The position numbers were made by a program. Below, one piece after another: positions 6,001 through 12,000 of a DNA stretch of 64,000 nt. Source of the DNA: a virus (lineage: Duplodnaviria > Heunggongvirae > Uroviricota > Caudoviricetes). The stretch lies in the IMG/VR virus record IMGVR_UViG_2687453508_000006; one strand, written 5' to 3'. How positions within the stretch are numbered: position 1 is the stretch's first letter; each line of letters opens with the position of its first letter.

Positions 6001-9000
6001 CTGGTAATAGTGCTCATATCAGTTTTCCTTATACGGATTAATTTTATTGTGCAGTGCGCTGAATGATTCCCATGTCACATCGGTATATAGCTCAATAACT
6101 GGTTCAAATGTCCTTCCAATTATCCAGACCAGTAATAGCGGGGATATCGGTATCATCAACACTATAAACAGAATGAAAAACAGAAACTCTGTTGTTCTGC
6201 TCTTTCGTGGGTAATTTTTTTCTAAATAATGTTTCATTTCTTACCGCCCTTTCGGGCGGCCTCCTGATGTTCTGAGGGTGCAGGAATCCCTCCGGTTAAG
6301 GATTTAATAAAAATCGTTTCTGATTTAAATCTTCAGTATTTAGTTGTTAGTTGGTTTATCGCCTTTATGCTTCAGCCTTATTTCGCAACCAGACACAAAC
6401 CGGGCCATCTTCCGTATCATGAATGGAACCAATAAACCAGCCATCGCCCTCTGGTCGTTCCGGTTCCCATGCAGAAATATCAGCATCACACGCATCAAGG
6501 TCAGCACATCCTTCATCTCTGAAGCAGAGGACGTATTGAAGATTATTTTCCTCCATCCAGGCGTTAAACTCTTCCGTTGAAATATATTCCCGACCATCAC
6601 AGAATTTTTCATATTCAGGATGTGTCCAGTAGCCATATCCGTCACGAACTACCGGCATTTCTTTAATTTCACTCACTGTTAACCTCCTGCAACGCTACAC
6701 GATACGCCTTCTTTATCCACGCCTTACTGCCATATAATTTCGTCTTCATAATAAACACACCTGCACGACTCGCCGATATCCCCGGACAGGTTAACAGCAC
6801 AGCATCCACCACACGGTTATGCTTCCGAAACTCCATTACAGTACTGCTGATAACCACCTGCCCCACCGGGCCGTAATCCTGATACAGGATTTTCACGCAG
6901 ACACCCTCCTGTCGAAATAAACGTAGTTATTCACTATGCGCAGCGGCATGCCTAATTTTCTGGCAATTTCCCTTCTTTGCATGCCTCTCTGATGCAGTTG
7001 CCGCGCCAGCTCAATATCACGCTGAGAATATTTTGCCGACGGGTGAAAATCACCACGTAACATCATGCTGATGCCCAGCTCCCGTGCCTTCGTTCTCACT
7101 GCCGCTTCAGTTCGTCCGATAAGTGCGCCAACGCTTTTTACCTTCATCGTTCCCGCACACTGCCGGAGTATCATGATTTCCGCCCGGCACCACGTCTTCC
7201 ACCCACTCACCGCTGCTGTTCTCTGGTGGCGGTAATATCCCGGAGAATATCCCGGCACTTGTTCAGCTCCCGCAGCGCGGCGCAGACTCGCTCCCACTTC
7301 TGAACCTGACCTTTTGCCCGGCGCAGCTCGCGGTTAGCCACATGCAGCGATGGTAAAATCAGACCATCCGGATGCTTTCTGGTGAACGACGGCTGTGACT
7401 GCACTGTGACCGCCACACTTTCCGTTTTTATTTCTTCCTGTGTTTCCGCTTCCCCGACTGGTAACGCAACACCTGCTGGCTGAGGAAAGGCTTTACCATC
7501 CGTTTCCGTTATGGATGCGGCTTTCGGCTCTGCCGGTAAATCAGCGCCCGGTATGCAGTACCGAAATTTACCGCCCTGATTCACGCGAATCAGACGCCCT
7601 TTGCTGATTGCCATGGCCAGTGATGAATTCGCCCGGCGGGAGGTAATCCCGAACATCAGTGCCAGCTCATCCGCCGTTTGTGGGCCATGATGTTCAATCG
7701 CCTCAGTCAGCATTTGCGCTGTCACTTTCGGTACCGGTGACACTGGTTCACTTTCACCAGTCTGAGTCAGCCACCACATCGACCCCTTGTTATCCGCTTC
7801 ACCACGGCGCTTCAGTTTCCACAGTTCGTTGACAGCATCTTCGCGGCTGATTCCAAGGCGCGATGCCACTACCTGTGAAGAGGCTTTTTTCAGTGCTTTC
7901 AGTGCGTCAAATACGGTTTCCATTAATATTTCCTCCGACAAAATCGTTTCTCAGATTCAAATAAAACCAGCTGCCTTCCGGCGTTCGTATTCCTGTTTCA
8001 GCCGTTCAATTGGCGTTGGCCCTTGCGGGTGTTTCGCCCCTTCCAGTTGTCGTCGCACTGGCGGAACACTCATCCCGTTACCAACATGCTTTGCCCATTT
8101 CGTCAGTTGCCGTTCCGCAAGTCGTTTTAACTCACCTTGCGTCATCTGGCGCTCAATCCCTCTGGTACGCATTTCGAGGCAGATGTGGTACAGCACAGGC
8201 TGTGGCCACGGGTATTTATCACTCCCGTCGTATCGCCAGGATTCATTGCGCCAGCGCCGGTACTCTTCCATCACGGCATCCACCGTAAGACCAAATGGAT
8301 TTGCCCCACTCTCCGAAATCAGCGCAACAAACTCAGCCAGGTCCGGGGGCCACGTTTCACCCGCCCGGCAGCGGTCCATGCACTGACGGCACACCAGACG
8401 GATTTGCTGTTCAGTCATCGCACCAATCTGGGCAATCCAGAGCTTCGAAGGTGCGGCCCCGTTCTTCTGAGTCCAGCGGTTCGAATACACCTCCCCCATG
8501 AGCTCCCACAGCTTCCAGGCCGTTTCCGTTGCTGATAAATCCGTTGTCACGTTCCCACTGTTCGCGTGCAGCCCGGATTTCCTGAACTGCCCGTGATGCC
8601 GTGCCACCTGATGCTGCATGGCTTCCCCCCTTGCTGACTGGTTTTACCTGTGCCCTGACGTGCTGCACGTGGCGGGCAAATTTCTGCTCCCACTGAACCT
8701 GCGTGAAAACCTTCCCCTCCGCCATCCAGTAATCCCGGAATGCGGCAAGCTCAGCAGGTGTAAATTCCGGCTCAGGCAGAGCCATACCCCACACTGCTGC
8801 CCGTTGTCGAAAATCCGGCGACGGCTGCCAGACAGTAGTCATCGAAAATTTCCCGATCGGTTCGCTCAGGCCGTCCAGGTATTCAGGTTCGGCTGTCTGC
8901 AACGGCGCACCATTCGACTCACTGGTCGGAATACTCTCGCGCGCGTTATGTGTGGGGTTTAATTCTGTATCTGTATCTTTATCTGTATCTTTATCTGTCG

Positions 9001-12000
9001 TGACTTGTCGTGACAGATGCGTGACACGTCGTGACTCATCGTGACAATCAGCATTATGTTTCCGCAGCTTTTCCCGCTCCCGCTGCGCTCTCTTGCGCTC
9101 TGCCGGGGATTTTGCCGTTTGCGAAACGTTACCATTGTCCTCTTTCAGCACCTGACGTTTTTCCCATCCGGAAATAAGGTCACCATCCAGAACCCGCCCC
9201 TGCATTGCATGCAAAATTGAATCAATTACGTCTTCCGTCACATCAAGCGCACTTGCTAAATCTTCCGTCGTGACATCAATGTGACCACGTAGTGACACGC
9301 CGTGACATGTCGTGACATTTCGTGACGCGCTCACCAGAAGATGGATATACACTGCCATCACTGTTGCGATTGGCTGTCCTGATACCCTGGCAATCGTTCG
9401 CCACTTGGGGTCATTTGGCATGTCATGCCACAATCTGAGCCAGGCATTAGCCATACTCACCTCTTCTGATACCGAACTTTACCCTCGAACATCCGGAAGA
9501 AATCCGGCATGAATATTGTTGGTCAATGCACGACAACAGCATTACCAGGCTGACCCCCACTGTTAGTCAGGGTGCCCCAGGCGATCGCCGCTGCGACAAA
9601 ATCATCCACATCTTTCACCAGCCGATCCCTCCGTTCGACGATCTCACGGTAATATTCAGAGCTGTGACTGCGCATACGGGCCACCAGCAGAGGCGGCATT
9701 GCCTTTTCGATCGCCGGTAACAGAGCCTGCATTTTTTCAACTGCATCAGGGGTGTCTTTCTCTATCCAGCGGAAAATTTTCTGGGTATTGCGAGCCAGGG
9801 CTTCCGGATGGCTGTCGTCGTACAGTTCAGGAAACGTCATACCCAACTCAAAATAAGCCTGGGTTATTCCAGCTGCCGGAACTTTTTCGCCATCAGGACG
9901 CGCCCAGGCATTCATCGCCATGCGGATGTGTTCATGCTTGATTTTCATGAATCCCCCCTTGGTTAGAAGGCGGATTATGATCAGAATCGGGAATGACAAC
10001 CGTCGGTATGTGTAACTCATATTTGAGCGCCCCGGCAGTGACTGCCTGAATTAGCAACGCCCATTTCCACGGAACGTCTTCCCCCCACATGCTGACTGTG
10101 GTTTTTGACGTTCCTAGAGCGGCGGCTGTTTTAACAACTCCGCCAAAATAGCCTAATACTTCTGATTTTTTCATGAGTCGCTCCATAAAACTGAACGCCA
10201 AAAGTTTAATAATCAAAACCAAAGAAAGTCAAGAAACAAAACCATCTGTGTTTTAAAATCAAAACATGAACAAGCAAACAATATCTGAACGCATAACCCA
10301 ACGTATGCATGCGCTAAACTTGAAAGGCAAAGACCTTGTCAATGCCACTGGCGCATCAAAAGGCTCCGTAAGTCAATGGATGAACGGTGGAGGAGCGCCG
10401 TCCTCGCGTTACATAAGTTCACTGGCAAAGATATTGAAAGTAAACGAAAATTGGCTTCTTAATGGAGGAGAGTTAAATACAGGTGATTCGCTTGATCTAT
10501 CTTTACCGCCGATAAAAACGGTTCCGCTACTATCACTTCAGCAGGCAGCAAGCTGGAGTGATTATATGAAAAATTCCTCAATAACCTCTTGTGTGCAGCT
10601 TGTCGGAGAAATCCCGGCCAATACCTTTGCTGTTGTTCTAGAGAGTGACAGTATGTCGACATCTGGTGGTGGAGTTTCCATCCCAAATGGTTCAACAGTT
10701 TTTGTTGATCCCGATCGAATCGTACAACCAGGAAATATTGTCCTTGCCTTACCCAAAGGGACCACAACGCCTGTCATTCGCAAACTGGAGATAGAAGGGC
10801 CGGATATTCTTTTAGTCCCCACGAATCCTCGCTACCCTTCAATTATGCTGGATGATCTATCTTGCATATTGGGAGTATGCTTTAAAATTCAACAAGATAT
10901 TTAACCAACCTCATCTATTTGATTAACTGTATGCCATCGTAGTGATGGCGTAACAGCTGCCTGCTTAAAATGTTTTGATAAAAAAACATTGACCTTAAAT
11001 GTTCGTTTTTCTAAACTTCATTCATTCCCTCACCCCGCCCCACAGAATGCAGGGCAATACTTCGAGTTACCAGGCAGTGGTCAGGGGTTAAGTAGCCAGC
11101 CCGAGGCGTAAGAACATGACGGCAGGGTTCAACTTTAATAACTATGCAGCAGGTTTTTGTTCCGCTACCCCGGCGTTAAGGGGAAATGAGGTCAACATGG
11201 ATACGCTCAATCTTGGCAACAACGAATCTCTGGTATGTGGCGTGTTCCCCAACCAGGACGGTACGTTCACCGCGATGACGTATACCAAAAGCAAAACGTT
11301 TAAAACTGAAGCTGGCGCGCGTCGCTGGTTAGCCAGAAACACTGACTGATGAGGTTGACGATGGAATTTAAAGATTTACCTCCTTCAATCCAGGAGATTG
11401 CAGCACACACACTTCGTCATCGTCTGAACGAACTTGAATTGGAATCGGTAACGAAAAAAGACACTGATAATATGGCTCGTAATGTGCGCGATGCGTTTAC
11501 CGGATTGTATTTCTGTGCGTCTATAAATAAACACGACTCAGAGAGTGTGGCAAATAAAATTGCAGAAACGACAGCGCAAAACATCAATACGAAACCAACG
11601 GAAGAAGAAATTGATCAGTTTGCTCATGATGCTGGTTTAAAAAACAAGAAAGAAAAATCGCCATATGCGGGGAACATGTTTGTTTATGACAATCTCATCA
11701 GAATTCGTGGCGAAATTCCGGCGGAATACCTGGCAAGAGTCCATCAGGCATTGCTTAAAAATTTGGAAACAGAATTATTTGATGGCAACACTAACGGTTT
11801 CTTCATGGTATCAGGCCTTGAGAAAGACTGGGATGCAGAAAAACGCTGGAATGTTGCTACATGGTTATTCAGTAACAGAGCCGCTGCACTGGAAGCTTCG
11901 GCATGTATTTGCGGCCTGTTCTTAACAGACCACAAATATAATCTGGATGTGTACAGTTATATTTACGCTGAACACGGTCCACTCTGGATTGACTGGTAAT

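Follow-up and report, generated by a model that had tools for sequence, protein, structure and literature searches.

Direct repeats inside a DnaT-domain initiator gene as a probable replication origin of a lambdoid prophage

Introduction

The 64,000 nucleotides of the IMG/VR virus record IMGVR_UViG_2687453508_000006 analysed here (hereafter the window) contain a gene, situated upstream of a lambda P-like gene, whose coding sequence harbours two clusters of short direct repeats. A sequence-only reading had taken these repeats for the iterons of a probable prophage origin and the gene for the replication initiator, which raises the question whether the repeats serve the prophage as DNA and, if so, whether they mark the site at which its replication begins. 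Both proposals are supported in silico: the origin by DNA-level selection, conserved positions, a shared repeat unit, an adjoining AT-rich stretch, protein domains and gene context, and the initiator by a winged-helix N-terminal domain, a DnaT-like domain and loader or helicase genes downstream. The probability that the region 8959-9326 is the replication origin of a lambdoid prophage, placed inside the gene for its own initiator, may be put at roughly three in four. The prophage itself may be defective.

The location of an origin inside an initiator gene is a principle already known, and the present element would be of an expected kind, but in an initiator family for which no origin description was found. 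The literature on this iteron, on the initiator family, on Rac oriJ and on the replication typing of Stx phages yielded no description of this origin, the searchable literature held no reports of binding, unwinding or replication for the initiator family, and origins are not discussed in the Eru papers.

The iteron arrays

The repeats are GTCACG units arranged head-to-tail, one helical turn apart, on the coding (minus) strand. Array B (9270-9326; plus-strand units at 9269-9326) comprises six GTCAC(G) units with cores at 9326, 9316, 9306, 9296, 9285 and 9274 (gene offsets 134, 144, 154, 164, 175 and 186; spacings of 10, 10, 10, 11 and 11 bp), while array A (9000-9045; plus-strand units at 8999-9045) comprises five GTCACG units with cores at 9045, 9035, 9025, 9014 and 9004 (gene offsets 415, 425, 435, 446 and 456; spacings of 10, 10, 11 and 10 bp), the gap between the two being ∼229 bp. 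All 11 cores share one orientation and read as CGTGAC/GTGAC on the plus strand. The two (t)cgtgac clusters with a spacing of about 10 bp, reported earlier within the 349-aa gene upstream of P, were found as described in the sequence and by repeat searches, and so were the repeats said to precede them on the plus strand (TCTGTA/TCTTTATCTGTA at 8964-8998; TRF and repeat search). The 64-kb window contains 10 copies of the pair GTCAC-N4-7-GTCAC, all but one of them inside the two arrays (0.55 expected from shuffles), and a scan of the window revealed no iteron array beyond A and B. The hexamer CGTGAC alone is present in 54 copies in the window versus 31 expected, with nine copies in the arrays.

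When synonymous codons were resampled with the amino acid sequence fixed, GTCAC arose 2.3 times on average and at most nine times in 20,000 samples, compared with the 11 observed (0/20,000), and GTCACG was expected 1.0 times versus nine observed. The core starts occupy all three codon frames. Since all frames are used and the resampled counts stay below the observed one, the repeats act at the DNA level and, as judged from the sequence, they are under selection as DNA.

A conserved GTGAC in the reverse orientation lies ∼33 bp past array B (gene offset 219). Its interpretation as an inverted iteron was rejected, because one relative (L022) retains this GTGAC though its own iterons are GTAAC; the motif more likely just reflects DVTE codons. 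The DnaA box TTATCCACA, with at most one mismatch, is absent from 8900-9500, the nearest one being at 9602; in this respect the candidate prophage origin differs from iteron-type plasmid origins, where DnaA box(es) lie beside the iterons. Promoter and terminator scans of the region 8300-10400 returned numbers at chance level.

The AT-rich stretch

Array A, the downstream one of the two, abuts a purine-rich (GATAAA)n tract. This AT-rich (GATAAA/GATACA)n stretch (8959-8998, minus strand; TRF) is purine-rich on the coding strand, encodes TDKDTDKDTDTE and has a GC content of 0.25 over the 40 bp past array A, as against 0.405 expected from synonymous resampling (P = 2.5e-4). It may be regarded as a candidate DNA-unwinding element. 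No AT-rich stretch adjoins array B. On the plus strand, a stem is found at 8935-8957, beside the AT-rich stretch.

In most loci of the family an AGATAA-type stretch begins ≤4 bp from the last iteron, and its GC content is 0.17-0.38 in most loci, uncorrelated with that of the host (r = 0.01); the per-locus table of GC contents is more reliable than a second automated estimate, which rose to values as high as 0.75 where the last iteron had been given a wrong end. The stretch is present in hosts with a GC content of 34-69%, where it is read in different frames.

Conservation among relatives

The comparison covered 47 relatives from gamma- and beta-proteobacteria, 43 of which were scanned for arrays. 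Both arrays are retained at the same gene offsets in ∼36 of the 47, at about 130-165 and 355-420 in Escherichia, Serratia, Pseudomonas, Bordetella, Chromobacterium, Acidovorax and others; in seven of the 43 scanned relatives the array is absent or degenerate only. Among the relatives scanned, arrays A and B always co-occur. The type of unit varies by lineage (GTCACG, GTAACG or CGAACGC), and both arrays of any one locus carry the identical unit, as established by an independent de novo search for each array.

In the GTCAC group, the array regions, 6.6 kb in all, contain 189 same-strand cores (28.6 per kb), compared with 1.2 cores per kb in the flanks, where both strands were counted. Across 39 distinct close relatives, differing positions amount to 0.2% in the cores, 5.6% in the spacers and 11.5% at other third-codon positions. 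Unit numbers among close relatives are 6/5, 6/4, 6/6 and 4/5, and in phage Evi 21 bp are missing from array B, equal to two units or seven codons. Palindromes of 10 bp (GTAACGTTAC or GTCACGTGAC) are found only in the sub-lineage formed by L022, L024 and L025. A TACGTA-rich stretch in two further relatives (L040 and L048) might resemble a fourth iteron type, but it coincides with codons for YVYYV in a C-terminal domain of another kind.

The initiator protein

The initiator gene spans 8411-9454 on the minus strand (347 aa from the ATG at 9454) and is named by PGAP, whose calls were taken from a 100%-identical O157:H7 chromosome, as a DnaT-like ssDNA-binding domain-containing protein; the mechanical ORF (8411-9460, minus strand, 349 aa) starts with a GTG at 9460. 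The only Pfam match of the product is DnaT (PF17948, E = 2.9e-17). The corresponding ssDNA-binding domain (aa 196-271, encoded by 8642-8869, minus strand) is a three-helix bundle, which fits both the family model and the solved structure. The ssDNA-contact residues of DnaT are F124, Y127, W128, K133, F135, K143, R146, S147, I150 and G151 (PMC4132743); the HMMER alignment shows identity at seven of the ten and has H, H and V in place of S147, I150 and G151. Assignment as a full-length DnaT equivalog was rejected, the score against PRK02854 (NCBIfam) being 94.5 bits, below the cut-off of 201, with the match limited to profile positions 82-156. Homology to lambda O was likewise dismissed (BLASTP E = 1.5; no match to Phage_rep_O, PF04492), and the earlier designation ‘O-like’ therefore holds by position and function only, since it lacks a basis in sequence similarity.

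The N-terminal winged-helix domain (about aa 1-100; 9155-9454, minus strand) obtained no family from Pfam or NCBIfam, replisome-organizer models included, and is placed only by PHROGs and by a fold search, the best non-DnaT matches of which, DnaD-NTD and a RepA_N initiator, show 8-13% identity and a likeness at the fold level only. The PHROG matches of the initiator are ‘replication initiation protein’ and ‘replisome organizer’, together with weak matches over aa 3-178 to ‘replisome organizer’ and ‘DnaD-like helicase loader’ families; close relatives bear the NCBI name ‘phage replisome organizer’. Array B encodes a loop of this domain (aa 43-62) with a pLDDT of about 72 between helices of 94-97, and array A encodes part of a disordered linker (aa 137-152; linker pLDDT below 50). 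According to the structural prediction, both arrays and the AT-rich stretch map to loop or disordered coding segments. The description of the repeats as encoding a TDKD/VT-rich linker fits array A and the AT-rich repeats; it does not extend to array B, which encodes the loop inside the DNA-binding domain.

The winged-helix domain is presumed to bind the iterons, in view of its linkage to the arrays and the concerted change of both. Its structured part shows 66-71% identity within iteron groups and 63-68% between them. L022 and L024 are 85% identical in this part, yet their units are GTAACG and GTCACG. As iteron types do not separate by clades of the structured N-domain, several nearest neighbours using different units, no specificity determinant can be named. 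The unit switches in both arrays together, with the remaining domain 82-85% identical. Given that array B encodes a surface loop of the presumed iteron-reading domain, the arrays and the DNA specificity of the initiator might be physically coupled, although this seems doubtful. If the loop did contact DNA, one and the same change would alter the site and its reading head, and the locus would have an inherent means of acquiring new replicon specificities.

Gene neighbourhood

The next gene after the initiator (7957-8619, minus strand) encodes a lambda-P-like helicase loader, which matches Pfam Phage_lambda_P (PF06992, E = 1.3e-15), the P-like helicase loaders of PHROG 109 (aa 18-220) and, by BLASTP, lambda P itself (E = 3e-6). 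The PGAP call of this gene covers 7957-8418, but the open frame and its homology to P extend further, as far as the ATG at 8619, which has an AGGGGGG Shine-Dalgarno-like motif upstream. The genes are ordered cI-like, cro-like, CII/YdaT-like, initiator and P-like. In relatives, the gene with the same N-module directly precedes a helicase-loader or helicase gene (P-like, DnaC/IstB-like, DnaB or primase-helicase).

Comparison with known systems

The locus had been said to mirror ori-lambda within gene O. This is true of the repeats inside the initiator gene, the AT-rich stretch after the iterons and the P-family gene next to it, but the units of the candidate origin are direct repeats, not palindromes. 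In ori-lambda, too, transcription passes through the iterons first and then through the unwinding region, which is A-rich and AT-rich and accepts in-frame changes in its coding part (PMC6022878). The order cI, cro, cII-like, O, P, with a P-family helicase loader next, is shared as well, and the absence of a DnaA box from the candidate origin counts among the likenesses. However, lambda has four 18-bp hyphenated palindromes with one O dimer on each (PMC6022878), whereas the present locus has 11 direct units with a 6-bp core and a spacing of 10-11 bp in two arrays, one of them within the coding region of the DNA-binding domain. Lambda O and the initiator both consist of a DNA-binding N-terminal half plus a C-terminal half, which in the latter, unlike in lambda O, is a DnaT-like ssDNA-binding domain.

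The SPP1 replisome organizer gp38 (G38P) binds direct repeats located in its own gene. These repeats adjoin an AT-rich unwinding element, and G38P has a DnaB-type helicase and a separate helicase loader as its partners; a second origin, oriR, lies about 13 kb away (PMC6316719). As in oriL of SPP1, direct repeats and the AT-rich stretch are both inside the initiator gene here. Unlike in SPP1, both arrays occur in one gene with no other array in 64 kb, the hosts are Gram-negative and the C-terminus is DnaT-like. With RepA_N plasmid initiators (4pta, ‘MDR initiator’) and the DnaD N-terminal domain the likeness is one of fold only, the hosts and C-terminal domains being different. The origins of RepA_N initiators are intragenic. 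In comparison with E. coli DnaT, the N-terminal domain is replaced by a winged-helix domain predicted to be sequence-specific, and localisation would be via iterons, unlike that of DnaT (PriA/PriB).

Origin model and alternative explanations

Should the region be an origin, early rightward transcription would lead to synthesis of the initiator, whose winged-helix domains would occupy neighbouring units of both arrays along the same face of the DNA. Looping of the ∼229 bp between the arrays may bring A and B together, and the strained complex would open the adjoining AT-rich stretch. The C-terminal domains of E. coli DnaT form filaments on ssDNA; the DnaT-like domains, tethered by the disordered linker, would capture the single strand, and the P-like protein would then bring host DnaB to the opened DNA. 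Such a process would resemble those at ori-lambda with O and P and at the intragenic origins of replisome-organizer and RepA_N initiators, although the initiator is of another sequence family than lambda O. For array B, both a share in the origin and a control function are conceivable.

It appears unlikely that the arrays are control sites bound by the initiator or a repressor, acting by roadblock autoregulation or ‘handcuffing’ copy control, with the true origin elsewhere. Such a role would suit two separate arrays ∼229 bp apart, the lack of an AT-rich stretch next to array B and the potential of binding within a transcribed gene to block RNA polymerase. On the other hand, a conserved, strand-asymmetric AT-rich stretch always a few bp after array A is the canonical layout of an origin, the 64-kb window has no other iteron array, and A and B are always found together. 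The N-domain, both arrays and the AT-rich stretch are, moreover, exchanged jointly as one mosaic unit, as expected of a replicon specificity module. The same low likelihood covers a weaker, non-exclusive version, in which array A and the AT-rich stretch would be the origin and array B a control or enhancer element. As control elements, incA of P1 and crr of P4 may be compared with array B.

That the (GATAAA/GATACA)n stretch owes its conservation chiefly to a role as a patch of recombination homology (a mosaic ‘linker sequence’), with the GTCACG arrays bound by some other host or phage factor, is quite improbable. The mosaic junction of the gene does fall exactly in the AT-rich stretch (blastn breakpoints at gene offsets 467-498), this stretch is shared with ydaU of Rac-SA53, which has an unrelated N-domain and no GTCACG arrays, and iteron type does not follow the phylogeny of the structured N-domain. 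Nevertheless, the patch and unwinding roles are not exclusive, and an AT-rich stretch beside the iterons is a requirement of origins. Neighbouring genes vary across the family, which leaves the N-domain as the only constant partner of the arrays, and a single host factor with three specificities is unlikely because the hosts span two proteobacterial classes.

Finally, the view that selection acts on a repeated VT/SR/CH peptide motif and on a DK-rich charged linker, the DNA periodicity being an incidental by-product of coding, deserves hardly any credence: the protein alignment conserves the motifs SRNVT, RGH, DVT and CHDESR, purine-rich repeats give charged residues in more than one frame and the acidic linker of E. 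coli DnaT has a protein-binding role (PMC13377028), but the explanation is contradicted by the codon-frame and synonymous-resampling tests, the unit period being no multiple of three with cores in every frame and the GTCAC count never being reached, while one hexamer encodes VT, CH, SR and GH alike, the AT-rich stretch is kept as DNA with a changing translation (TDKDKDK, RLDKRRV, QIREEEIRE), and AT-rich codons are used even where the GC content of the host is 60-69%.

Significance

The replication module is common, O157:H7 prophages included: of 5,426 complete E. coli genomes, 2,501 show matches to parts of the initiator gene, and 657 contain most of it. In O157:H7, prophage replication drives gene dosage after induction. 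The candidate origin, taken together with the specificity groups, would offer a testable incompatibility or replicon typing scheme for prophages outside the existing O/P and Eru typing. In addition, three unit types occurring with a nearly constant domain would make up a clean natural experiment on the switching of initiator/iteron specificity. The presence of a DnaT ssDNA-filament domain at a sequence-defined candidate origin bears on the parallel between DnaT and DnaA put forward from recent preprimosome structures (PMC13377028). On the same doubtful view that couples the arrays to the specificity of the initiator, the protein would in addition be a natural ‘DnaA-like’ design, in which a sequence-specific duplex binder is fused to the filament-forming ssDNA domain of DnaT.

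Repeat arrays and AT-rich stretch within the initiator gene

The coding strand of the 347-aa initiator gene carries 11 GTCAC cores in one orientation, 10 or 11 bp apart, which bears out a sequence-only reading that had placed two clusters of repeats at about 10-bp spacing inside the gene upstream of P. Array B (window 9270-9326) has its cores at gene offsets 134, 144, 154, 164, 175 and 186, and array A (window 9000-9045) at 415, 425, 435, 446 and 456. Nine of the 11 cores read GTCACG, and the consensus of the unit is nTGTCACGAC. Pairs of the form GTCAC-N4-7-GTCAC occur 10 times in the 64-kb window (expected 0.55), nine of them in the arrays. 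The repeat period is not divisible by three, and cores begin in each of the three codon frames. When the amino acid sequence was kept fixed and codons were drawn from local usage in 20,000 synonymous redraws, GTCAC was found 2.3 +/- 1.4 times (maximum 9 in 20,000) versus 11 observed, and GTCACG 1.0 times versus 9 observed. Because of the excess of pairs, the non-triplet period with cores in three frames and the excess over synonymous redraws, the repeats are selected as DNA.

Array A is directly followed by ACAGATAAAGATACAGATAAAGATACAGATACAGAATTAAA (window 8998-8959; GC 0.25), the coding strand of which is purine-rich and repeats every 6 or 12 bp. The AT content of the 40 bp after array A lies above 99.97% of the synonymous redraws. 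A GC-rich stem-loop followed by TTTAATT (8935-8957, plus strand, antisense to the initiator gene) adjoins this stretch; sites of this kind are no more frequent in the region than expected by chance.

Gene context

The early region of a lambdoid prophage lies in window 4411-13460, which is 100% identical to an E. coli O157:H7 chromosome. It includes a cI-like repressor gene (10266-10904, plus strand) and, on the minus strand, a P22-Cro-like gene (9932-10222), a CII/YdaT-like gene (9523-10020), the array-bearing initiator gene (8411-9454) and a lambda-P-like gene (7957-8619). The cI-like ORF encodes a full repressor of 212 aa (HTH_3 and Peptidase_S24); in the identical O157 sequence, PGAP annotates just the final 113 aa, as a "LexA family protein". 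The P-like frame stays open far upstream of 8418, where PGAP places the start (region 8414-8619, minus strand), and shows homology there to the N-terminal portion of P-family proteins. Its matches begin at aa 18 for PHROG 109 and at aa 58 for Pfam (profile position 31), and AAGGGGGG is located 6 nt upstream of the ATG at 8619. From this ATG, P (220 aa, compared with 153 aa for the short form) would share 209 nt, in another frame, with the disordered tail of the initiator gene; an overlap of 137-257 nt is likewise present in relatives with a DnaT-type C-terminus.

Elsewhere, the window holds a direct duplication of ∼16-17 kb (30326-46705 and 47648-63849; spacing ∼17.1-17.3 kb), whose 300-nt blocks are mostly 94-100% identical, with three tandem 162-bp units in each copy (37754-38377 and 54899-55522).

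Initiator protein

The AlphaFold2 model of the initiator, built from an alignment of 49 sequences, consists of a helical domain that includes a beta-hairpin and is modelled with confidence (aa 1-100), interrupted by a less confident loop (aa 43-62) that is exactly the coding product of array B, a disordered segment (aa 137-166) encoded by array A and the AT-rich stretch, and a confident three-helix domain (aa 196-271). Hence the proposal that the repeats encode a linker is true of array A and the AT-rich stretch, but not of array B, which encodes the loop within the N-terminal domain.

Within the family, differing C-terminal halves are attached to the array-carrying N-module, and the N-domain is the one partner of the arrays that stays constant. 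Since the genes that follow are P-like, DnaC/IstB-like, DnaB or primase-helicase genes, the position is, as judged from gene order, that of a phage initiator.

Arrays in related loci

The first 166 residues, used as query, retrieved over a thousand proteins, many of them named "phage replisome organizer". A pattern scan yielded 47 genome loci (43-92% identity; gamma- and beta-proteobacteria) and 80 close viral contigs, and 43 of the 47 genome loci went into further scanning. GTCAC arrays are present at the same two gene offsets in about 26 genome loci; in this group, the array regions, 6.6 kb in all, contain 189 same-strand cores (28.6 per kb), versus 1.2 per kb on both strands of the flanks. 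Arrays occupy the same two places with a GTAACG unit in four loci (L022, L025, L035, L037) and with a CGAACGC unit in nine (L030, L031, L033, L034, L036, L038, L043, L044, L045). When each array region was searched separately and de novo for its best 10-bp-periodic 5-mer, the two arrays of a locus gave an identical unit in about 36 of the 43 loci, and seven loci showed degenerate array traces or none. That the two arrays, 230 bp apart and in different frames, change their unit together is the strongest evidence for recognition of both by one trans-acting reader. The arrays, chiefly array B, might alternatively be control sites rather than an origin, a reading that is compatible with the origin proposed below.

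Among 39 distinct close relatives, divergence from the window amounts to 0.2% in cores, 5.6% in spacers and 11.5% at other third-codon positions, and unit numbers vary (6/5, 6/4, 6/6, 4/5); array B of phage Evi is shorter by exactly 21 bp, equal to two units or seven codons. The iteron types do not match the phylogeny of the structured N-domain: loci L022 and L024 are 85% identical in this domain, yet the third base of the unit differs.

The arrays of L022, L024 and L025 contain perfect 10-bp palindromes (GTAACGTTAC or GTCACGTGAC; gene offsets about 165-178 and 427-440) as well as 5-bp-overlapping runs (CGTCACGTCACGTCACG), which suggests that head-to-head reading of a pair of abutting half-sites is possible in this sub-lineage. 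In L040 (Serratia MAG) and L048 (Pantoea) the conserved N-domain is joined to a different C-terminal part (YVYYVA...GISRNPWAR), and neither the two arrays nor the AT stretch are found; the YVYYV codons there overlie a TACGTA-rich run.

Conservation of the AT-rich stretch and mosaic junction

A stretch of the AGATAA(A/G) type starts no more than a few bp from the last unit in almost every locus having array A. Its GC content is 0.17-0.38 in most loci, uncorrelated with that of the host (0.34 to 0.69; r = 0.01), and its translation differs by frame (TDKDKDK, LDKIREE, RLDKRRV or QIREEEIRE); hence the stretch is conserved as DNA and not as peptide.

The initiator gene is mosaic, its 5' half (offsets 1-498) sharing ∼85% identity with phages Evi, Tritos and others and its 3' half (offsets 467-1050) ∼87% with ydaU of phage Rac-SA53. 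The (GATAAA/GATACA)n stretch is the exact breakpoint (window 8959-8998; about 3002-3036 in relative locus L001; 3571-3590 in L002, the ydaU locus). This AT-rich junction is common to the window gene, Evi and ydaU, despite the C-terminal half being unrelated in Evi and the N-terminal half in ydaU, which has another N-domain and no GTCACG arrays. The AT stretch could also, though improbably, be kept as a recombination patch, with the arrays read by another factor; mosaic breakpoints do fall in it, which is compatible with a role in unwinding. Just upstream (coding sense) of the common GATACA stretch, ydaU contains a perfect 10-nt inverted repeat (TGTTCAAACA / TGTTTGAACA, 13 nt between arms; L002 3614-3646), to which this different type of initiator may bind.

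A proposed intragenic origin

The analysis shows how the sequence is built, its selection at the level of DNA, its conservation throughout the family, the joint change of units in both arrays, the folds of the domains and the setting among neighbouring genes. The element is probably an origin whose units are iterons bound by the initiator, a reading to which we give about three chances in four; each single mechanistic step deserves less confidence than this. Winged-helix domains would bind each unit head-to-tail on one helix face, looping may let arrays A and B cooperate, and the AT-rich stretch beside array A would open. The single strand could be taken up by tethered DnaT-like domains; the C-terminal domains of DnaT assemble into filaments in which each protomer accounts for two nucleotides (PMC4132743, PMC13377028). 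DnaB would be brought by the P-like protein, and transcription from the early promoter would run through the origin, as in lambda. A pure by-product of coding is contradicted for the repeats by the frame and synonymous-site tests.

Along the direction of transcription, ori-lambda (PMC6022878) and SPP1 oriL (PMC6316719) have iterons first and then an A-rich strand, and the arrays and AT stretch of the window show the same order as both. The resemblance to ori-lambda claimed from the sequence alone holds for this layout; two defining features of the lambda O family, initiator homology and palindromic 18-bp iterons, are lacking. The likeness to ori-lambda with O/P, and to the intragenic origins of replisome organizers, would be one of mode of working. 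The window gene differs from described cases in its two arrays, one of them within the region coding for the DNA-binding domain, in a 6-bp core at helical-turn spacing, in the occurrence within its family of three types of unit although the domain hardly varies, and in the DnaT-like C-terminal domain of the initiator. No published description of an origin of this type was found in the literature searched, and none of the 24 phage records with the N-domain is a classical model phage. An origin at such a site is what a specialist would expect, and the picture at the level of the family, though unsurprising, is neat and testable.
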